DNA of 30,004 nucleotides from positions 1 to 30,004 of IMG/VR virus record IMGVR_UViG_2740892439_000007; one strand, 5' to 3'. The notes under the pieces are model-generated. The model had not been told where the DNA came from and made no database searches. It saw only the letters and a list, made by a program, of their open reading frames with translations. This document shows, in pieces, positions 3,871 to 28,377 of the stretch; the first letter of the stretch is position 1, and every line of letters begins with the position of its first letter. The DNA comes from a virus (lineage: Duplodnaviria > Heunggongvirae > Uroviricota > Caudoviricetes). The position numbers and the translations under genes are program-made.

Positions 3871-3883
3871 AAATAAATTGTTT
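3871..3883. promoter_or_regulatory. Operator-like palindrome AAATAA-A-TTGTTT (1 mismatch), within a 30-bp block also found at 10736
   Basis: aaattgttttctaccttttcttatttg here versus caatttgttttctaccttttgttgattg at 10738. Confidence 0.5.
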
Positions 3884-3957
3884 TCTACCTTTTCTTATTT
3901 GTGAAAATAAACCAGCACTTGGTAGTGCTTATGTAACAGCAAAGAAGAGAAAAACAC

Positions 3958-6932: not shown

Positions 6933-7322
6933 ATGGGCTTCCCTTCTCCTGCGGCGGATTATGCTGAGAGCCGTATTTCTCTTGATCAGCAGATAATTAG
7001 ACATCCTTCAGCGACCTACTTCATGAGGGCAGCTGATAGTCATCATCGTGAGGGAATATTACAGGGTGCATTGCTGGTGGTCGATTCCTCACTTACCCCG
7101 GTTGATGGTTCTCTGCTTGTATGCGCTCTGGATGGGGAATATCGCGTAAAAAGATACCGGAAGTACCCACGTCAGCATCTGGAGGATTTAAGAACCGGTA
7201 AGAAGGAAGCATTGCCAAAGGATGACGATGGATGCACGGGCAGCAATGCCGTGTTTGGTGTGATCACTCACATTATCAACGACGCAAGAAGTGGCGAGTT
7301 TGATGATTGTCCCGTGATGTAG
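6933..7322 (+). CDS. UmuD'-like S24 peptidase-family protein, encoded without the N-terminal cleavable arm (HumD-like)
   Basis: Begins M-GFPSPAADY, i.e. at the equivalent of the UmuD Cys24/Gly25 cleavage site; Ser (ADSH) and Lys (RVKR) of the catalytic dyad are present; no upstream in-frame start is available. Confidence 0.8.
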   Translation: MGFPSPAADYAESRISLDQQIIRHPSATYFMRAADSHHREGILQGALLVVDSSLTPVDGSLLVCALDGEYRVKRYRKYPRQHLEDLRTGKKEALPKDDDGCTGSNAVFGVITHIINDARSGEFDDCPVM

Positions 7323-10735: not shown

Positions 10736-10799
10736 AAACAATTTGTTTTCTACCTTTTGTTGATTGAGATAATAAGCCACATAAGAAAACAAATTGTTT
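10736..10799 (+). promoter_or_regulatory. Promoter with two perfect operators (10736-10748 AAACAA-T-TTGTTT; 10787-10799 AAACAA-A-TTGTTT) flanking an extended -10 TGAGATAAT (10765-10773)
   Basis: Operator centres 51 bp apart, the same spacing as at 15412/15463. Confidence 0.65.
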
Positions 10800-10812
10800 C
10801 GGAGTGGTTGAA

Positions 10813-12482: not shown

Positions 12483-12616
12483 CTTAATCAATCAGTTGAT
12501 AATGGCGGTCACAATTTGATTCTTTTCTATAAGAACCCGTTGATCGCCACTACTCCCCTCCCATACCAGCAATCACATCATTAAATATCAATAGGTTAAC
12601 GTTGTTTATACCAATA

Positions 12617-13330
12617 AGAAAACAACTAAATAACAGATCAACGAAACATCAACGCTTTCTCCCGATTTGGTCTAAAAAATTGACGTTATCACACATCACT
12701 TCTTATACCCGTAATTCTACGCAGCAGATAGCGCCACAGCGTCCAAATTTCACCACAAACGACTCAACACACTACCAACAAAAACACACGCTCAAAATCG
12801 CTCCCGTTGCGTTACACAACCATATAAACAACTTATTTTCAGGCATAACAAAACAACTAAATAACACATATGACATTCCCCAAAACAACCAACCTCTTTA
12901 TGGCAGGCTACCGAAAAGACCCACCTCTTCTCCCCAGGCTACCGGACAACCAACCTAACTTTCACAGGCAATCCGAAAACATTCATACGCGCGATACCCA
13001 CGACACGCCATTCCCCAAACAGCGAAGAAACACCAGAATCACTGAAACCCCAACGAAGCCTGTTACCGCAAGGATTCTCTCAATCCCAAAAGACACGAAA
13101 CATAACAATCACGGGAAACGCCATTACCCAATACACGAATAACTACAAAAGCCCTTCACGCACTCCAGACAAACAACTCAAACACAATAACGAAAGCAAT
13201 CGCCCACCTGCCATTACTCCATACACGGAGAAGAACAATCACCAAAACGACGAGAACACCCCATAGAAGAACCACCGCAAAACGAACGAAACCATTTACA
13301 CCGACAGAGAGAACAACACACCCAATTCAC
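12617..13330 (+). other. About 0.7-kb noncoding tract with strong A+C strand bias (roughly 75 percent A+C on the plus strand) and internal repeats
   Basis: Hand counts on two 60-nt lines gave 75 and 77 percent A+C; track ORFs here are low-complexity P/T/N/Q/H-rich translations. Confidence 0.7.
12888..12981 (+). repeat. Three tandem ~30-bp direct repeats (CCACCTCTT...CCAGGCTACCG family)
   Basis: Units at about 12888-12920, 12921-12950, 12951-12981; same family as 15811-15900. Confidence 0.6.
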
Positions 13331-13466
13331 CAACAGAAATAGTCGCCGTATAGAACATTCTGGAAGGAGTGAGCATTAACGCCTATAGAGAGGTTGAGAC
13401 AGATAAACACGAAGAAAACACAACATGTATAGCGAAGAAGCCAGGTATGTATAAGTGGGGAGGGAA

Positions 13467-13488
13467 GGAGGGGTGTCGCCTCCTTTTT
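13467..13488 (+). terminator. Hairpin plus T5 terminator candidate at the end of the AC-rich/purine-rich noncoding tract
   Basis: ggagg ggtgtcg cctcc followed by TTTTT. Confidence 0.45.
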
Positions 13489-13547
13489 CGTATTTATTCA
13501 ACTCCTGATTTTATCCCCCGTAACACCCCTACGGTCAGCCTTCGGTC

Positions 13548-13700
13548 CATACAGGGAAAAGGCTGCATCCCGCTACAGAAACGGCTGGGTTGCCTTCGGG
13601 GAACGGCTGGAGGTTTTCAGGGAAACGGTCGAGTTGCCTGTGTGGATTTCGGGAAAAGGCTCGATGCCGGTTCAGGAACGGTGGCGTACCGGTATAGCGA
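13548..13700 (+). repeat. Iteron array: six direct repeats with core GG(G)AAA(C/A)GG at about 22-bp periodicity
   Basis: Cores at about 13564, 13587, 13608, 13630, 13661, 13685. Confidence 0.65.
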
Positions 13701-13998: not shown

Positions 13999-14033
13999 TG
14001 CGATAATAACACCAACAAGAAAACATGTTGTTT
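13999..14033 (+). promoter_or_regulatory. Extended -10 promoter TGCGATAAT (13999-14007) plus operator AAACAT-G-TTGTTT (14021-14033)
   Basis: ttgcgataataacaccaacaagaaaaca is identical to 15440-15467. Confidence 0.65.
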
Positions 14034-14045
14034 AAGGATTGATTT

Positions 14046-14375
14046 ATGTTTGCACATATCGACATCAACCAAATCAAGAAATTAACTCAAAAAGAGTTTG
14101 ATCAGTTTTATGAGTTAGAAGGTTGGTCTTCCACTCTGATCAATTCGCGGTGGGTGCTTGAGCTGATGACTCGTGATGACGCACCTGCTTTGATGATTTG
14201 CGACATGGGTGAAGATGCTGACTTTATGGATATGAGCGAATTTTGTGTGGACACATACAACCGCAGCCAGAAGTACTACTTCACATGCGATAGCGAAAAT
14301 GACGTGATTTCTAAGGTCTATCTTCACCTCGTCCAGCATTGGGACGTTCAGGAGTTTCTTGAGGTATTCGCGTAA
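14046..14375 (+). CDS. Hypothetical acidic protein (109 aa)
   Basis: ATG 13 nt after the operator; Asp/Glu-rich. Confidence 0.65.
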   Translation: MFAHIDINQIKKLTQKEFDQFYELEGWSSTLINSRWVLELMTRDDAPALMICDMGEDADFMDMSEFCVDTYNRSQKYYFTCDSENDVISKVYLHLVQHWDVQEFLEVFA

Positions 14376-14481
14376 TCCCAACCAAAGCCAGCATTGCTGG
14401 CTTAATTTCTCTATAGCCGCAGGGAAGAACCTACATATCGCTCATGCACCTGATCAATATGCTTTGTAGCCGTTTTCTTAC

Positions 14482-14517
14482 TGGTATCATTTACGCCATT
14501 GAGAAAACAAGTTGTTT
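14482..14517 (+). promoter_or_regulatory. Extended -10 TGGTATCAT (14482-14490) plus perfect operator AAACAA-G-TTGTTT (14505-14517)
   Basis: Same architecture as the other cassettes. Confidence 0.6.
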
Positions 14518-14528
14518 ACGGAGTTGTG

Positions 14529-14840
14529 ATGAAAAAATCATTGGTTCTTGGTCTGGACAAAGACCAGAAGAGAAAAGAGAAGCCTGCGCTGGTTGCTCAA
14601 TTAACTTTGCTGGACATCGTTGCCAATGGAACCTCTATTCGTCTGTTCCGTGAAACAGCGGTATCTTTCGATAAAAACACCTTTACTCGTTATGTAATGA
14701 ATGTTCGTCGCCAGCGTGGAAAAGGCTGGGTGGCATTTCAAAGAATGTGGCCGGAACATCAGCTCGAACTGGCTTTGATGGAAGTTAACCGCGTGGCCCA
14801 GCAAGAAATTCAGAGAGCATCAGTGATGGCAATAGCCTGA
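14529..14840 (+). CDS. Hypothetical protein (103 aa)
   Basis: ATG at 14529 with GGAG 5 nt upstream; the track start at 14499 lies inside the operator. Confidence 0.6.
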   Translation: MKKSLVLGLDKDQKRKEKPALVAQLTLLDIVANGTSIRLFRETAVSFDKNTFTRYVMNVRRQRGKGWVAFQRMWPEHQLELALMEVNRVAQQEIQRASVMAIA

Positions 14841-14874
14841 TAATGTGCAAGTGGTAATTAGTCGACAGTACGAC

Positions 14875-14903
14875 AGCCCCGCCATCCTTACGGGGCTTTT
14901 TTG
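14875..14903 (+). terminator. Rho-independent terminator (gccccg ... cggggc + TTTTTT)
   Basis: GC stem plus T6 after the stop of CDS 14529-14840. Confidence 0.75.
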
Positions 14904-14960
14904 TATTGTAAGTACTTACCTATGGCGATAGTATTACGACGCATTTACATGGAGGTAAAA

Positions 14961-15368
14961 ATGAGTTTGACCAAAGAAGATTTAGTATTTGACCTTTACT
15001 ACGCATCCAGCACTGACGAAGAAGGCAATAAACTGGCCCAGCTGACCGTTCAGTTCCGTGATGCATCGGCTGTTCCGCATGTGACTACCCAGCTGGCCCG
15101 CACAACTCTTAAGCGAGATCGCTCGAAGGTTTATGCCGTCGGCGAGCAATCCGTGAAAAATGGTTCAGACACTCTGCTGGCCGCCATTGAAGCCTATTAT
15201 CGAACAGACCCGAAGACCATTTTCGAAAACCTGATGGCCCAGGTTCAGGATATGATCGAGGGCAACCTTGGCGCCAACAATACCTGGGTTGGTTCTTACG
15301 GCATCACCATTGTGTCTGGCGGCTCTCTGGAAGAGTATCTGCCTGAGTCCGTCTACAACGTCCAGTAA
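14961..15368 (+). CDS. Hypothetical protein (135 aa)
   Basis: ATG at 14961 with GGAGG 5 nt upstream; the track N-terminal extension begins in the terminator T-tract; a 12-bp palindrome GTAAGTACTTAC sits upstream at 14909-14920. Confidence 0.65.
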   Translation: MSLTKEDLVFDLYYASSTDEEGNKLAQLTVQFRDASAVPHVTTQLARTTLKRDRSKVYAVGEQSVKNGSDTLLAAIEAYYRTDPKTIFENLMAQVQDMIEGNLGANNTWVGSYGITIVSGGSLEEYLPESVYNVQ

Positions 15369-15377
15369 ACCAGCCAA

Positions 15378-15400
15378 TGGCGCGTAACCCGCGCCATTTT
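15378..15400 (+). terminator. Rho-independent terminator (tggcgcg taacc cgcgcca + TTTT)
   Basis: 7-bp GC stem plus T4 after the stop at 15368. Confidence 0.75.
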
Positions 15401-15411
15401 CCCCAACCCGT

Positions 15412-15475
15412 AAACAAGTTGTTTTATGCCTATCCTACATTGCGATAATAACACCAACAAGAAAACAAGTTATTA
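15412..15475 (+). promoter_or_regulatory. Promoter with operators at 15412-15424 (perfect) and 15463-15475 (degenerate) flanking extended -10 TGCGATAAT (15441-15449)
   Basis: Operator centres 51 bp apart, as at 10736/10787. Confidence 0.65.
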
Positions 15476-15494
15476 ACGCAGTGAGGAAACGCAC

Positions 15495-15776
15495 ATGACC
15501 GATTTCACCATCTCCCCGAAAGAAGAAAACGTATGGCTGGAATCCTGGCTTGACCTGTCGCCGGCCGAGCAGAAAGAAATGGATCACGTCGAACCGGACG
15601 AACAAACCAGCTCCCGCTTCTTCCATTATCAGGATAGCGTTTATGACATTGCCGATTTCATGCGCGATGACCGCTTCCCGGAATGGCACGCCGGCTATCC
15701 ACTGAATGCCTTCGCTATGCTGATGATCCGCGTGACAGATTCAGGCGACGCCATCGACATCGGATTACTTCATTGA
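15495..15776 (+). CDS. Hypothetical small acidic protein (93 aa)
   Basis: ATG with gagga RBS; Asp/Glu-rich. Confidence 0.65.
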   Translation: MTDFTISPKEENVWLESWLDLSPAEQKEMDHVEPDEQTSSRFFHYQDSVYDIADFMRDDRFPEWHAGYPLNAFAMLMIRVTDSGDAIDIGLLH

Positions 15777-15810
15777 GAGGGGAGGGCCACCGATGCTGGT
15801 GGCCATCAAT

Positions 15811-15900
15811 TACCACCTGCTTTCCCGCAGGCTAAAAACACCCACCTCTTACCGCCAGGCTACCGAAGCACCCACCTGTTCCCGTCCGGCTACCGCAACT
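15811..15900 (+). repeat. Three exact-period 30-bp tandem direct repeats (cCCACCTnnTTnCCnnCaGGCTAcc...)
   Basis: Units at 15811-15840, 15841-15870, 15871-15900; related to 12888-12981. Confidence 0.65.
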
Positions 15901-15928
15901 TTCCACTTTGACGCCTTATTCGTACAAC

Positions 15929-15961
15929 GATAATTAATACCAACAAGAAAACAATTTGTTA
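15929..15961 (+). promoter_or_regulatory. -10 GATAAT (15929-15934) plus operator AAACAA-T-TTGTTA (15949-15961)
   Basis: Same cassette family. Confidence 0.55.
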
Positions 15962-15981
15962 TTTACGATAAGGAATTAATC

Positions 15982-16464
15982 ATGAATTTTATCGCTACTG
16001 TAAACGCACCCGCACATGGCAATATCGCTGTAACGTTCTCTGACATTGAAAAACGAGTACTTGGTGCATGGCGCGACAATGAGACGGTAGAACTGTCAGC
16101 ACAAGAAAAATGCATTATTGCACGCGACATCATTGGCAATCGTCGTTACTCGCGGGTATTTGAGAAAGCGTATGTGGTAAATTCTGGATTCGGAACGTTC
16201 GTCTTTCCGGTGCGCTCCGGGCGATTCTGCCAGTCCAAGCTGATTGAGTTCGCTACGCAGATTTCTGTCTGGATTAAAACTCAATCGTCGTTCAAATTTT
16301 CCGACGATGAAGCAGTATCGCAGGGGATGCGAATCGCCAACAATGCGATTAAATGCAAAAACATTACGTATACCGCTGGCGTTGACACATGGAAACTGTT
16401 TTGCGCTAACTTTATGCTGAATGTATACGCAAGCAACCGCATCCACATCCTTGATGGCGTGTAA
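15982..16464 (+). CDS. Hypothetical protein (160 aa)
   Basis: ATG 21 nt after the operator; terminator follows. Confidence 0.65.
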   Translation: MNFIATVNAPAHGNIAVTFSDIEKRVLGAWRDNETVELSAQEKCIIARDIIGNRRYSRVFEKAYVVNSGFGTFVFPVRSGRFCQSKLIEFATQISVWIKTQSSFKFSDDEAVSQGMRIANNAIKCKNITYTAGVDTWKLFCANFMLNVYASNRIHILDGV

Positions 16465-16471
16465 CTGAGAA

Positions 16472-16496
16472 GAGGGCCAGAAACGGCCCTTTCTCT
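16472..16496 (+). terminator. Terminator candidate (gggcc agaaac ggccc + TTTCTCT)
   Basis: Hairpin 8 nt after the stop of CDS 15982-16464. Confidence 0.55.
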
Positions 16497-16513
16497 ATAG
16501 CCACCAGCTGCCG

Positions 16514-16629
16514 CAGGGAAATTTTCAGAAACGGCGAGGAACGTATTCATGAGCCGACGGGAAACGGCCAGGATTTTTTCGGGAAACGGCTGCATTCGCC
16601 TTTATGTAGAAAAACATCGGGAAGCTGGT
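16514..16629 (+). repeat. Second iteron array (GGGAAACGGC-type, about five units, two of them exactly 22 bp apart at 16559 and 16581)
   Basis: Same core as the 13548-13700 array. Confidence 0.6.
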
Positions 16630-16735: not shown

Positions 16736-16878
16736 AGTGGTGTGATTATGTGAAAAATCACGCGCACATAATACGCGAGCGGATACGGAACAAAACAAAA
16801 TGCCGATCCGCGCCGACAAATAAACGCGGATCATAAAGCAAGACTAAAAGCCAATGATTAACCATACTCTATAGCGCA

Positions 16879-18303: not shown

Positions 18304-18828
18304 TTAAAATGGAAGGATTCGTTCAACCCAATCGAAGAAAACAAGTATTTTTCTGCCGTCTTCTAACTTAAGAGTGACCTGGCAAGCATCAACGCCTCTT
18401 GACACCCCTTCAATTTCACGACCGTCTGCCATGTAGACCCTTATAGATTGGTCGTTTTGATAAGCCTTGCGACATATCGCAAAAAAGTCACGGCGTGATG
18501 GCTGATTGTCAACATAGTCTGGATGTATTGTTAGCCTACCTTTGAACTCGCGAGCAATGCCATCGATTACACCTGATTCAATTGTGCTAATGCGCTCAAG
18601 TGGGAGTCTTATACGATTTTCTTTATCATATGGAAGCGGGCATAAATCTAGCTTATTGCGGGAAGGCATTGTCCCCTGAACGTACATGCAAAACACCTGA
18701 CCGTCTTCAAGCGTGACTCTTACAGGAATGTTGTTCTTCCGCCAGAACATAAGTATGTTTTCAGCATGTTCGTAGTCTCGCGGCCAGACTTCAGCCGGTA
18801 TGCCGTAGGTGATGTCCGATGTTCTCAT
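18304..18828 (-). CDS. Tandem Rof (YaeO)-like domain protein (174 aa)
   Basis: Two internal repeats each resembling E. coli Rof as recalled (DY...LEDG ... ExRxRLxxIS/T): VRVTLEDGQVF...ENRIRLPLERISTI and IRVYMADGREI...VTLKLEDGRKILVFFDWVERI. Confidence 0.55.
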   Translation of the reverse strand: MRTSDITYGIPAEVWPRDYEHAENILMFWRKNNIPVRVTLEDGQVFCMYVQGTMPSRNKLDLCPLPYDKENRIRLPLERISTIESGVIDGIAREFKGRLTIHPDYVDNQPSRRDFFAICRKAYQNDQSIRVYMADGREIEGVSRGVDACQVTLKLEDGRKILVFFDWVERILPF

Positions 18829-21438: not shown

Positions 21439-21520
21439 AAACCTCTTTCCTTAGTGCCTTTTGTATGTTATTTGGCTATTATAATAAGTAAGTGATTACT
21501 TAGTGGATTGTAGCAATAAA

Positions 21521-22201: not shown

Positions 22202-22869
22202 TGACCAAAAAGTTTGAAATCGTATATCGCGACCCGGCAGATCTTATTCCCTATGAGATGAATGCCAAAAAGCATGATGAACAGCAGATCCGAGATCTGG
22301 CCGCAGCCATTAAAAAGCGCGGATTTGACCAGCCAATTACGGTCGATAAGAACGACGTAATTATTACTGGCCACGGCCGCCGTGAGGCTGCAATTTTTGC
22401 TGGACTTGAGCGCGTACCGGTTATTGTTCGCGATGATCTCAGTGATGACGAGGTTCGTGCGAAGCGTCTTGAAGATAACCGACTTGCCAGCATTGATTAC
22501 GATGCAATTAAGCTACAAAAAGAGCTTGAGTCGCTTGTTCTGGACGATATCGAGGTTTTCGGCTTTGAAGAGCGTGAGTTGAATGTTCTCGTTGGCAGTA
22601 TGACAGAAGAAATGGACACCGACTCGCTAGTTATCGATCTTGGCGAAGAAACTAAACGACAGAAGGATGAACACACCGAGATCAGTCGTGAAGTTGCAGC
22701 GGAAGAAGTACGTGTTGTCGACGTATTGGGCTTTAAAACGCTCCCTGCTGGCTCTGCCATTGTTGTTGGTGATTTGCTTGCCCATATGGAAGAAATGACG
22801 GGAGAAAGCGGGGTAGACGCATTTGTGGCATATGCGGAGAAGATCTCTTCCGGGGAGATGGCTGCATGA
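22201..22869 (+). CDS. ParB-like nuclease domain protein 2
   Basis: PYEMNAKKH and IITGHGRREAA motifs; TAATG overlap with the upstream gene and AGGAG RBS. Confidence 0.7.
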   Translation: MTKKFEIVYRDPADLIPYEMNAKKHDEQQIRDLAAAIKKRGFDQPITVDKNDVIITGHGRREAAIFAGLERVPVIVRDDLSDDEVRAKRLEDNRLASIDYDAIKLQKELESLVLDDIEVFGFEERELNVLVGSMTEEMDTDSLVIDLGEETKRQKDEHTEISREVAAEEVRVVDVLGFKTLPAGSAIVVGDLLAHMEEMTGESGVDAFVAYAEKISSGEMAA

Positions 22870-24811: not shown

Positions 24812-24849
24812 AAACAAGTTGGTTAGCAGATGCAGTAAACAAGTTGTTT
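24812..24849 (+). promoter_or_regulatory. Two operators (24812-24824, one mismatch; 24837-24849, perfect) with centres 25 bp apart, upstream of the late operon
   Basis: Same AAACAA-G-TTGTTT family, but different spacing from the early cassettes and no extended -10 between them. Confidence 0.6.
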
Positions 24850-24889: not shown

Positions 24890-25522
24890 ATGACGGTCGA
24901 AAAAGACGAGGTAAAAACTCGCCTGACACCAGCGGAGTGGGCCGAAGCTGAAGCCAAATGGACGTCAGGCGAATATACACTCTCAAAGCTGGAGGAAGAG
25001 TACGGCATTCGTCGTGAAACACTCTCCAGACATTTCAAAAAGCGAGGATTAGAGAAAGGCGCGGACTCTGTTGGGAAGATGGTTCGTGAGTCTCTTAAAT
25101 CTGACGCAGAGCTTCGCGCTAAAGCCCGTGCGGAAAAGATAGAAGAACGTCGTACACGTTATGACGGCTGGGCGTATGCGTTGGGGCAGATGGTGATGGT
25201 CGAAGTCACTACGGCCAAACGTGAGAGTAAGCCTTTAGGGGCGATTGAGGATTCTCTCAAGAGCTTACAGAGAGCCAGTAATACCCTTGCAAAATGCTTT
25301 GAAGTTTCGTCCAAAGCATTGGGCATGGATCATGCGGAAAATGACGAGGAAGAAATTCCGAACCTGGTATTTGGTGAGCTTACACCTTCCCAGGTGGCGA
25401 AATTACGTCAGGAAGACGACGAGCCTGAAATCATCGATGACGAATTGCTTGAGACGTTGGAAGAAGAAGCTCTAAGCGAATTTGATGCGACAGATGATGG
25501 AAGTGAAGGGGAGGACGAATAA
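24890..25522 (+). CDS. Terminase small subunit candidate (210 aa)
   Basis: Position directly upstream of TerL; acidic C-terminal tail; stop overlaps the TerL start. Confidence 0.6.
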   Translation: MTVEKDEVKTRLTPAEWAEAEAKWTSGEYTLSKLEEEYGIRRETLSRHFKKRGLEKGADSVGKMVRESLKSDAELRAKARAEKIEERRTRYDGWAYALGQMVMVEVTTAKRESKPLGAIEDSLKSLQRASNTLAKCFEVSSKALGMDHAENDEEEIPNLVFGELTPSQVAKLRQEDDEPEIIDDELLETLEEEALSEFDATDDGSEGEDE

Positions 25523-26803: not shown

Positions 26804-28377
26804 ATGGAATTGAACGACAAACAAATTAAGGATCTGGTGGCGCGACGCCACCCGGAATACGAAAAGAAAAAAGAACATTGGGACTTCCTCGCCAGCACTT
26901 ACGCTGGCGGGCGTGGTTGGTTTACAGACAATATCTTTCGTTACTTTAAAGAGGGAGATCAGGAGTTTAAGGAGCGTGTTGAGCGTGCCTATCGCTTCAA
27001 CCACACTCGTGAGGTGGTAAACCTCATCAACAAATATCTCTTTAAAGAAGACATTAATAGAAATATCGAAGAGGCACCAGAGCAGATCCGCAATTTCTGG
27101 AAACGTGCGACTCGCCAGAATGCCTCTATTGACTCATTTATGGCCGCCATTGATTTGCAATCGTCAATCTACGGCCGTATCTGGGTTGTTGTTGATAGCA
27201 CAATGAGTGGTGATGTTGAGTCAGTAGCTGACGAGAAAAAGAAAGATGCTCGTGCCTACGCCTACTGGATTTCACCTCAGCAAATGCTGGATGTGGCATG
27301 GGACGACGACGGGAATATGTTATGGGCGTTAATTGTGGAAGTCGCTCGCGATGACGCAGATCCTTTTACTTCTACAGGTCAGGAATACCAACGTTATCGT
27401 CTGTGGACACAAAACGAGTGGTATCTGTTCCGTGAGGAAGTGAAGAAGGGGGCTGGTGGAGCAGGTCGTCGTCAGGCAAAAGTTATTTTAGAGGACAGCG
27501 GCGCGCATAATCTCGGCGTAGTTCCTGTGTTTCCTGTTGATTGTATTGGAGAAAGTGAATCACCGTATTTCAGCCCATCGTTGATCGATGATATCGCTTA
27601 TCTTGATCGTGCGGTTGCAAACTATCTGTCAAACCTTGATGCCATTATTCAGGATCAGACATTTAGCCAGTTGGCTATACCGGTACAGTCGCTTTTACCT
27701 GGTGATGAAAACCACACTAAAGTGCTTGAAATGGGCACAAAGCGAGTCTTCACCTACGATTCTGAAGGTGGAAACCAGCCGTTTTATCTGTCACCAGACC
27801 CGAAACAAGCTCAGATGATCATCACTACGATTAAGACGGTGATTAACGAAATCTACCATTCAGTTGGTGTAGCTGGTGAGCGAACGAAGCAGGACAACGC
27901 ACAGGGAATCGATAATTCATCTGGTGCCGCAAAAATGTATGACTTCCAGCGTGTAAATAGCTTGCTTGTCACAAAAGCAGAGCGTCTGGAAAGGCTGAAC
28001 GCCAAATCATGCTACTGGTTGCGAAATGGATGGGGGTAGATCTGGACGAAGACCACTCTTTAATTGCGTATCCAGAAAGTTTCGATATTCGTGGCCTTAC
28101 AGATGAATTTTCTGTTGCCGAGAAACTGTCATTACTTCAGGCACCGGACTCTGTACGTCGTCACCAGATGGAAATGCTTATTGAGAAGATTTTCCCGAAC
28201 ATTACTGAGGCGATGAAAAAGGAATTTGATAAAGATCTCTTGAATTTTCCTCCAAAAAATGATCTAAATACCCTTGAAAATAAGTCAGTACTTACTTATG
28301 ATCGTGGTGCAGCCCAAGAAAGCGGGCAAGATCAACCCCGAGGGAATGGGGACTCATCTACTCAAGAGAACGAGTGA
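26804..28377 (+). pseudogene. Portal protein (T7 gp8-like head-tail connector family) interrupted by a -1 frameshift
   Basis: GESESPYFSPSLIDDIAYLDRAVAN resembles the T7 gp8 segment GESYGRSYIEEYLGDLRSLE as recalled; the frames switch near AAA at about 28003. Confidence 0.65.

Follow-up and report, generated by a model that had tools for sequence, protein, structure and literature searches.

The viral DNA analysed here, 30,004 nucleotides (nt) long and referred to below as the window (IMG/VR record IMGVR_UViG_2740892439_000007), carries at positions 13999-16496 an array of five small genes, g1 to g5. We read this array as a hyperplastic accessory-gene region resembling the PeSL cassettes of T4-type phages, in which conserved regulatory blocks would link the genes to two circuits spanning the whole element and, by sequence comparison, also serve as the joints at which cassettes recombine. 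We put the probability of this reading at roughly 0.6.

The 2.7-kb region containing the array shares 99.7% identity with the Escherichia coli plasmid pECAZ155_2 and 94% with Escherichia phage Cyrano, and its relatives comprise 726 plasmid and 13 phage records, among them Salmonella phage SSU5. Because the array matches these plasmids and phages, the window is identified by comparison as a piece of an SSU5-type phage-plasmid, the family of pHCM2, pMT1 and Cyrano. The plasmids were found in Klebsiella, Escherichia, Yersinia, Enterobacter, Salmonella, Citrobacter and Cronobacter, and 699 of the 726 were typed as non-mobilizable.

Five genes with their own predicted promoter modules

The original prediction had called five genes of 109, 103, 135, 93 and 160 amino acids (aa), and all were recovered with those positions and lengths:

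14046-14375, plus strand: g1, 109 aa, isoelectric point (pI) 4.27, net charge -13, 19% Asp plus Glu; PHROG 7645, unknown function
14529-14840, plus strand: g2, 103 aa, pI 10.5, net charge +8; PHROG 5125
14961-15368, plus strand: g3, 135 aa, pI 4.59, net charge -7; PHROG 2473
15495-15776, plus strand: g4, 93 aa, pI 4.22, net charge -14, 21.5% Asp plus Glu; PHROG 1845
15982-16464, plus strand: g5, 160 aa, pI 9.16, net charge +5; PHROG 1641

For every product the match to a PHROG family extends from end to end (E 1e-56 to 1e-97), and the five families are of 'unknown function'. Because of these end-to-end matches and the conservation of the genes across genera, we regard g1 to g5 as real. A separate promoter and operator had been proposed for every gene, and this agrees with the predicted modules that we found, built around one palindrome (O1) at g1, g2, g4 and g5 and around another (O2) at g3. 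Their elements, including Shine-Dalgarno (SD) sequences, are as follows:

13999-14045, plus strand: g1 promoter and leader; extended -10 TGCGATAAT at 13999-14007, O1 AAACATGTTGTTT at 14021-14033, SD AAGGA at 14034-14038
14482-14528, plus strand: g2 promoter and leader; extended -10 TGGTATCAT at 14482-14490, perfect O1 AAACAAGTTGTTT at 14505-14517, SD GGAG at 14520-14523
14906-14934, plus strand: g3 promoter; TTGTAA at 14906-14911, 17 nt, TAGTAT at 14929-14934, with O2 GTAAGTACTTAC overlapping at 14908-14919
15411-15423, no strand assigned: upstream O1 copy of g4, AAACAAGTTGTTT, centred about -38 from the g4 -10 and followed by the conserved block TGCCTATCC
15441-15494, plus strand: g4 promoter and leader; TGCGATAAT at 15441-15449, O1 AAACAAGTTATTA at 15463-15475, SD GAGG at 15483-15486
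15908-15981, plus strand: g5 promoter and leader; TTGACG at 15908-15913, GATAAT at 15929-15934 or TAATTA at 15931-15936, O1 AAACAATTTGTTA at 15949-15961, SD AAGGA at 15970-15974

The O1 module, of about 35 nt, has the form TGcGATAAT-aACACCAAcAAG-AAAACAAgTTGTTT and lies upstream of g1, g2, g4 (with a second copy further upstream) and g5; the 20-mer CAACAAGAAAACAWGTTRTT has 8 matches in the window against 0.05 expected. When 42 distinct modules of the window and of nine relatives were aligned, the consensus was cTTTt..GCcTtttc...tTGcGATAAT-tAcACCAAcA-AGAAAACAAgTTGTTTA-(SD). The predicted order of parts is thus an extended -10 (TGnGATAAT or TGnTATCAT), a transcription start expected 6-8 nt further on, O1 at about +7 to +20, and the SD, 1-10 nt past O1. 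O1 itself is the palindrome AAACA-N3-TGTTT, placed between the -10 and the ribosome site, and it is kept at the orthologous promoters of relatives from E. coli, Klebsiella, Salmonella, Citrobacter and Yersinia. The module of g1 is conserved in relatives, and the O1 of g2 shows zero mismatches in those from E. coli, Klebsiella and Salmonella. A second, inverted O1, centred at about -38 and followed by TGCCTTATC, occurs at g4, at a DUF5983 gene at 10804 and at an alternative cassette of relatives (C, below); in the distant relative pKSB1_7G.2 the array promoters carry the upstream copy only. The g3 module combines TTGTAA-17-TAGTAT with the O2 palindrome GTAAGTACTTAC, which lies across the -35 and the spacer, and is found upstream of every g3 homologue, distant ones included. 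The general form of O2 is GTAAGYRCTTAC.

The genes are followed by hairpins:

14385-14403, plus strand: hairpin after g1, -12.4 kcal/mol, z -3.05, weak U tract
14875-14903, plus strand: intrinsic terminator after g2, AGCCCCG...CGGGGCT then T6, -21.5 kcal/mol, z -5.8
15376-15398, plus strand: hairpin after g3, -14.4 kcal/mol, z -5.6, U4 tail
15785-15804, plus strand: hairpin after g4, GGCCACC...GGTGGCC, no U tract, not significant on folding (z -1.3)
16467-16495, plus strand: hairpin after g5, -17.7 kcal/mol, z -4.25, at the array end

The three intrinsic terminators that had been proposed survive in part, in that stable hairpins follow g1, g2, g3 and g5 and the canonical predicted terminator is found at g2 only. 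The motif TCTCTATAGC occurs four times within 3.5 kb (13382-13391 on the minus strand, 14408-14417, 16492-16501 and 16866-16875), a number reached in 1 of 100 shuffles; it stands directly 3' of the g1 and g5 hairpins, where GCAGGGAA follows it.

O1 and O2 recur across the element

In the 108-kb genome of Cyrano, a search for AAACAANTTGTTT with at most one mismatch returned 18 O1 sites, against 0.2 in shuffled sequence, every one of them between genes. The genes preceded by O1 are terS (with two copies), parA, a DnaB-type helicase gene, cobT, RNR-beta, tciA, several genes of unknown function and the array genes. A scan of the window found the same pair at terS together with further sites outside the array:

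24812-24849, plus strand: O1 pair upstream of terS (24890-25522)
249-261: O1
963-975: O1
3872-3886, minus strand: O1
10737-10751, minus strand: O1
10787-10799: O1

O2 has 12 sites in Cyrano (one perfect, eleven with one mismatch), against 3.75 in shuffles. The perfect copy, GGTAAGTGCTTACC, is in the CYRAN_45/CYRAN_46 intergenic region, and the helix-turn-helix (HTH) protein CYRAN_45 was named as the putative master repressor by the authors who studied the Cyrano lysogen in strain LF82 (PMC9928086). A repressor of the CYRAN_45 type is the candidate binder of O2. Most of the one-mismatch copies are intergenic and have extended flanks, ATAG...CTAT. Both palindromes therefore show the pattern of a dispersed operator, one sequence at many promoters genome-wide, and since O1 and O2 are distributed in this way the five cassettes appear to be wired into two element-wide circuits rather than to possess private operators. 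A literature search with the O1 sequence as a string returned unrelated primers only.

Copies of O2 of the form (ATAG)GTAAGnnCTTAC(CTAT) were also seen in the window at 2677-2688, 21488-21499 and 28284-28295, and in Cyrano at 22452, 45267, 57450, 67887, 77440, 79655 and 84624. Most sit in the short intergenic spaces that separate genes running in the same direction, and in some cases the next start codon is only about 15 nt away. O2 could be a DNA operator or an RNA hairpin with an 8-bp stem.

Exchange of cassettes at regulatory blocks

We surveyed the architecture of the array in 63 IMG/VR loci and the window, using open reading frames (ORFs) filtered for an SD, of which a few of 45-58 aa are probably not genes. 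The 64 loci display 33 architectures. A cassette map of 10 annotated loci indicates a fixed backbone with variable slots: a first slot holding B, A or g1, then g2 and g3, a slot for C, D or g4, a slot for E, F, G or H, and finally g5. The most constant member is g2, present at 63 of the 64 loci, followed by g3 (61), A (42), g4 (35), C (31), g1 (30) and B (23). The variable cassette families are nearly all acidic (pI 4.1-5.2). In pMT1 of Yersinia pestis (locus L019, 3432-5059), IS1541 truncates the array, leaving g4 and g5 with their O1 promoters and, adjoining them, the FljA-like gene discussed below; g5 is thus kept even there.

The window is itself a mosaic. Two alleles of g3 exist, 36-43% identical to each other, and that of the window is the Klebsiella-type allele, with 100% identity to pKp_SB612_3 and 36% to the E. 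coli-type allele. From 13800 to about 14900 the window is of E. coli type (96-100% identity); from about 14900 to 15830, covering g3 and g4, it is 93-100% identical to the Klebsiella type versus 34-87% to the E. coli type; and beyond about 15840 the E. coli type resumes. On these identities the window is a recombinant, with a Klebsiella-type g3-g4 block set into an E. coli-type array. Its left joint falls in a block common to all types, made up of the 3' half of the g2 terminator and the left half of O2. Its right joint, at about 15870-15878, is the second CCCACCT of a repeat pair in the g4-g5 spacer:

15835-15907, plus strand: two repeats, CCCACCTnTT..GGCTACCG, spaced by 31 nt, in the g4-g5 spacer

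Other relatives reveal further joints of this kind. Where C replaces g4, the exchanged segment has the upstream O1 with TGCCTTATC as its left border and the hairpin that follows the gene (15785-15804 in the window) as its right one. The extra C and D cassettes of Cyrano are joined at TGCCTTATC, which is present ahead of both the C and the g4 promoters. In the O104:H4 plasmid, an extra A cassette has a g1-type promoter up to O1 and the g1 that follows has a g2-type promoter up to O1; because both promoters switched type as far as O1, the crossover that inserted A is placed inside O1. Joints thus lie within repeated regulatory sequences in four independent comparisons (O1; the upstream O1 with TGCCTTATC; the post-gene hairpin; the terminator/O2 block), the exception being the right joint of the window, in another conserved repeat, CCCACCT. 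The modular, exchangeable layout that had been suggested from the window is accordingly borne out by the number of architectures, by the recombinant state of the window and by the position of the joints. Cassettes are exchangeable because recombination runs inside the conserved regulatory blocks, and on this comparison the hairpin, the upstream O1 with TGCCTTATC, O1 and O2 are portable homology for exchange.

A second direct-repeat pair with 31-nt spacing, CCCACCTnTT..CCAGGCTACCG, is present upstream of the array (12883-12956), and both pairs look iteron-like. An integron-cassette origin was rejected, because no integrase is annotated in or beside the array of any relative examined (a search for attC was not made) and the repeats are promoter/operator modules.

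A model for the array and points against it

In the model that we favour, each of the five genes would be an autonomous unit, composed of a predicted extended -10 promoter, a leader of about 30 nt, the ORF and, in four of the five, a hairpin. The units would not be independent regulatory islands, each being plugged into one of the two element-wide circuits: that of O1 for g1, g2, g4 and g5, with an optional inverted copy at about -38, and that of O2 for g3. Since O1 stands ahead of replication, partition, nucleotide-metabolism and terminase genes and O2 beside the gene of a putative HTH repressor, regulators encoded by the element are the most likely mechanism. By binding O1 and O2, these would keep the cassettes low in the plasmid-prophage state, and the cassettes would then be released together with lytic or establishment genes. 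Recombination within the blocks, as the joints show, inserts, deletes or replaces ORFs and re-assorts promoters and ORFs. The products would most plausibly be host-directed accessory proteins acting in anti-defence, host takeover or exclusion.

Published RNA sequencing of the Cyrano lysogen allowed the expression of the cassettes to be followed. The homologues of g1 to g5 (CYRAN_105, 106, 107, 110 and 111) had log2(FPKM+5) values (FPKM, fragments per kilobase per million mapped reads) of 2.3-5.1 in LF82 grown overnight in LB, where the floor is 2.32 (PMC9928086 S1 Table). Among other O1-linked genes, terS, the helicase gene, cobT, CYRAN_58 and RNR-beta were also low and parA was expressed (PMC9928086). 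This pattern fits leaky repression in the prophage and does not by itself make the cassettes early genes, as had been proposed.

Several observations weigh against the model. Instead of an operator for a repressor, O1 could be a site for an activator or a component of the promoter, as it precedes terS and also parA, which is on in lysogens. Low expression in the lysogen is weak evidence for control through O1, because most genes of the element are silent anyway, and the rise of the array genes in macrophages without induction (below) fits moron-like prophage expression too. A generic sigma-70 scan misses the module promoters (1 site found versus 7.7 expected), which are predicted from conservation. 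Finally, frameshifts relative to Cyrano split the UvsW-like helicase gene (about 20470), the large terminase gene terL (about 25910) and the portal gene (about 27975) and leave the five small genes intact; the element in the window may therefore be defective, or these may be indel errors of assembly.

A candidate regulator of O1

The only annotated regulator gene near the array encodes a protein of the FljA family, 33.7% identical to the annotated FljA of Salmonella:

18304-18828, minus strand: FljA-family regulator gene, 174 aa; Pfam PF03614 Flag1_repress, E 5.4e-81, residues 5-171

Salmonella FljA is reported to prevent translation of the fliC mRNA (PMC2652032). We considered whether the FljA-like protein recognises O1, partly on the mRNA leader, and thereby blocks translation, a proposal that is compatible with the model above and that we regard as possible but less likely than not. 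The protein matches the Pfam family over its full length, its gene is kept beside the array in 835 plasmids, and it is expressed in the Cyrano lysogen (log2 7-8 outside LB, 4.2 in LB). At all array genes O1 falls in the sense leader, immediately ahead of the SD. CCAATAA and CAAGTTGT, which the fliC leader has in common with O1, stand about as far from the SD there, and the fljB leader lacks them. Against this, the 8-mer common to O1 and the fliC leader arises by chance in 3.8% of shuffled leaders and corresponds to the inner, variable positions of O1, the invariant arms AAACA and TGTTT matching fliC at 3 of 5 positions each. The palindromic symmetry of O1 and its inverted copies at -38 suggest a DNA-binding dimer instead, the distant relative having the -38 copies only, and the promoter of the FljA-like gene itself is without O1. 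Co-variation of regulator and operator is not discriminating here, because the O1 core stays the same even where the FljA-like protein has only 26-35% identity. A co-occurrence test on viral contigs, made independently, gave SSU5-type loci only.

An Hfq-like match in the C-terminus of the FljA-like protein (E 1e-3) is weak and below the Pfam cut-off. Comparison with Hfq by hhalign was not significant (probability 3.7%) and aligned the N-terminal region, not the C-terminus flagged by Pfam; an Hfq-like domain thus found no support from hhalign. The segments FWRKNNIPVRVTLEDGQVF and SIRVYMADGREIEGVSRGVD of the protein resemble the Sm1 motif of Hfq, weakly. A bolder scheme would make the FljA-like protein, possibly with Sm-like domains, the regulator of O1, targeting the initial 20 nt of each leader as DNA and/or RNA; Salmonella FljA would be its domesticated descendant, much as Hin is kin to phage invertases, and the O1-wired acidic cassettes would form a reservoir of anti-defence and host-takeover genes swapped via their operators. 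We consider this scheme distinctly unlikely as a whole. As another O1 binder we considered g2, which is basic, always present and preceded by a perfect O1; it was undetected in one relative that keeps O1-like sites, which is weak evidence against it.

Lysogenic conversion and positive control

If the cassettes were morons, they would be lysogenic-conversion genes transcribed from the resident plasmid-prophage to the advantage of host or element, for instance under stress or inside host cells, and not lytic or early genes. The autonomous layout of predicted promoter, gene and terminator fits the definition of a moron, as does the polymorphism of presence and absence. Inside macrophages, in which the authors saw no induction of Cyrano, the LF82 homologues rose from their LB level to log2 5.4-7.8, and the same authors counted CYRAN_109, a small gene within the Cyrano array, among the morons (PMC9928086). 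However, in LB all five homologues stayed below the level at which the authors called a moron (PMC9928086), the rise in macrophages extends to many further genes of the element, and O1 is common to the cassettes and to genes for replication and packaging that lysogens keep silent. We therefore judge lysogenic conversion an unlikely main role.

No better placed is the idea of O1 as a positive element, whether bound by an activator or belonging to a promoter specific to the phage-plasmid, that turns on the cassettes and the packaging operon in lytic growth. The late gene terS is preceded by two O1 copies, and several O1 promoters have poor sigma-70 -10 hexamers (TAATTA, ATTAAA, TTTAAA) at a fixed distance from O1. 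The upstream O1 copy, moreover, is centred at -38, a position typical of class II activators. Yet most O1 sites lie downstream of the best -10 candidate and over the expected start, which is the position of a repressor, and no candidate protein for an activator was identified. We prefer to read O1 as an operator within the model above.

Gene products and the question of DNA mimicry

The products had been described as mostly acidic. Computed pI values show that g1, g3 and g4 are acidic (three of five) and that g2 and g5 are basic; the richness in Asp and Glu noted for the genes at 14046 (g1) and 15495 (g4) stands, at 19% and 21.5% of residues. In public annotation the five are 'hypothetical', except that g4 bears a legacy 'ABC transporter' label that nothing supports. 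None of them has a Pfam or NCBIfam match at E ≤ 1, a PADLOC family or a meaningful PDB sequence match, and an accession search for the five proteins found nothing relevant. A PADLOC match of g3 to ZorA (E 0.023) is at chance level, and a single-sequence match of g1 to potato multicystatin (E 1e-4) was treated as spurious, because it was lost when the family profile was used against PDB sequences. Close homologues of g1, g3 and g4 are confined to SSU5-type elements; for g1, 10 clusters were found, all from such elements.

The wider family of g4 was recovered by an exhaustive profile search and comprises 152 representatives of about 90-100 aa, 25-40% identical, from metagenomes and phages. One of these relatives lies on a phage-like contig crowded with small genes of unknown function, near a DUF5983 gene. 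The family has a median pI of 4.6, with 75% of its members below pI 5, and conserves seven acidic columns. A structural model of g4 built from close homologues alone had a predicted local distance difference test score (pLDDT) of 74 and no fold match; with distant relatives aligned, the pLDDT rose to 88, with a predicted template-modelling score (pTM) of 0.71. In the predicted structure a long beta-hairpin occupies the N-terminus and a sheet the C-terminus, with two short helices in addition, and this beta-rich modelled fold matches uncharacterised phage proteins only.

From the acidity of the products it had been proposed that they are DNA-mimic anti-restriction proteins. In its specific form, this would make g1 and g4 especially into mimics of the Ocr/ArdA type, made immediately on entry and blocking type I restriction-modification or BREX. 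Both proteins are strongly acidic, the acidity and seven acidic positions are conserved over the divergent g4 family, the alternative cassettes are mostly acidic and the array is variable, as is usual for counter-defence loci. The proposal nevertheless found no backing: the database searches, in which ArdA or Ocr would have appeared among Pfam, NCBIfam or PDB entries, returned nothing of the kind, and the structure prediction suggested as a check gave a modelled g4 fold without resemblance to known DNA mimics. The charge density is modest, with a net charge per residue of -0.12 for g1 and -0.15 for g4, compared with about -0.2 or more negative for Ocr. Nor are very acidic proteins significantly enriched in the Cyrano array (3 of 7, versus 8 of 61 other small proteins; p = 0.078). 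AntiDefenseFinder yields almost nothing in SSU5-type elements, and in a preprint that screened 1227 SSU5-type contigs it detected only Rad, in 16-22% of Escherichia and Shigella elements. DNA mimicry is thus very unlikely; an anti-defence or host-takeover role overall is a tentative proposal.

Surroundings of the array

Genes neighbouring the array in the window include those for a HumD/UmuD-like S24 protein, ApbC/MinD and MetRS, a UvsW-like helicase operon with the FljA-family regulator as its last gene, ParB genes and the terminase and portal genes. The product of 6933-7322, a 'LexA-like S24 peptidase', is a translesion polymerase subunit of the HumD/UmuD type (NCBIfam equivalog, E 8e-66) and not a repressor.

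Just upstream of the array is an ORF-free stretch of about 850 nt (12500-13360) whose plus strand is 70-78% A+C and 7-16% G. It is followed by a strong terminator-like hairpin on the plus strand (13462-13489) and then by a G-rich block. The A+C-rich composition recurs upstream of the array in all relatives examined, the distant pKSB1_7G.2 included, and in pECAZ155_2 an IS3 element is inserted in it. The stretch may serve as a rut-like insulator at which Rho loads, or may yield a long RNA without structure; it had no match in Rfam, and Rfam and tRNA scans of the whole window were empty. Repeat units of the types GGGAAAAGGCT.. and GGGAAACGG flank the array on both sides (13540-13700 and 16553-16589).

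Significance and comparison with known systems

SSU5-type phage-plasmids are very common in clinical Enterobacteriaceae, including pHCM2 of Salmonella Typhi, pMT1 of Y. pestis and elements of many Klebsiella and E. coli isolates, and their regulation is essentially undescribed. The present analysis supplies two candidate operators, O1 and O2, and a list of the promoters that they mark. The array also delimits about a dozen conserved, mostly acidic protein families in defined slots, which are candidates for screens of anti-defence and host interaction.

Ocr (T7 gp0.3) and ArdA resemble the acidic array proteins in being small, acidic and encoded where an incoming element would express its first genes; the array proteins differ in having no sequence or fold similarity to them and a lower charge density, and in the beta-rich fold modelled for g4. 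Anti-defence islands in the leading regions of conjugative plasmids, reportedly described by Samuel et al. in 2024, are said to use single-strand Frpo promoters and to enter by conjugation. Like the array, they group small genes that are exchanged rapidly, often encode acidic proteins and are presumed to function as the element enters. In contrast, the array has predicted double-strand promoters with operators and resides on a non-conjugative phage-plasmid (699 of 726 non-mobilizable).

The Salmonella FljA system is similar in that the regulator neighbouring the array belongs to the same Pfam family and in the fliC leader a portion of the O1 core stands immediately ahead of the SD. The array-side protein is nevertheless only 34% identical, lies in a phage-plasmid helicase operon with no flagellin gene or hin nearby, and has a putative target.

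The morons of lambdoid prophages are autonomous promoter-gene-terminator insertions defined by expression from a repressed prophage. The array shares with them self-contained units that are present or absent between otherwise similar genomes, but its homologues are near background in lysogens grown in LB and its promoters share operators with lytic-type genes. The operators of phage P1 bound by C1, as Lobocka et al. reportedly described in 2004, are asymmetric 17-mers dispersed over the genome. Both P1 and the SSU5-type element thus have one operator scattered over a phage-plasmid genome and placed at many operons, accessory genes included, that would obey a single regulator; in the array, however, the operators are of two palindromic kinds with candidate binders only, and they have no sequence relationship to those of P1.

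The closest parallel is with the PeSL (promoter-early stem-loop) cassettes (Arbiol et al. 2010; Comeau et al. 2014), in which repeats made of a stem-loop and a sigma-70-like promoter flank small non-essential ORFs of T4-type phages and recombination between the repeats inserts, deletes and replaces ORFs (PMC2839356; PMC4122927). Both systems consist of small ORFs of unknown function in hyperplastic regions, and in both a repeated composite of hairpin and predicted promoter surrounds the variable ORFs (in the array, hairpins at g1, g2, g3 and g5 and the O1 module at g1, g2, g4 and g5), with the same junction logic at the joints. They differ in that PeSL cassettes belong to lytic myoviruses and the array to a temperate, siphovirus-like phage-plasmid, and in that the repeats of the array carry two kinds of palindrome also found at core genes genome-wide. 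With candidate operators that double as joints for the exchange of accessory genes, the array carries the PeSL principle beyond lytic T4-type phages and into a temperate phage-plasmid.

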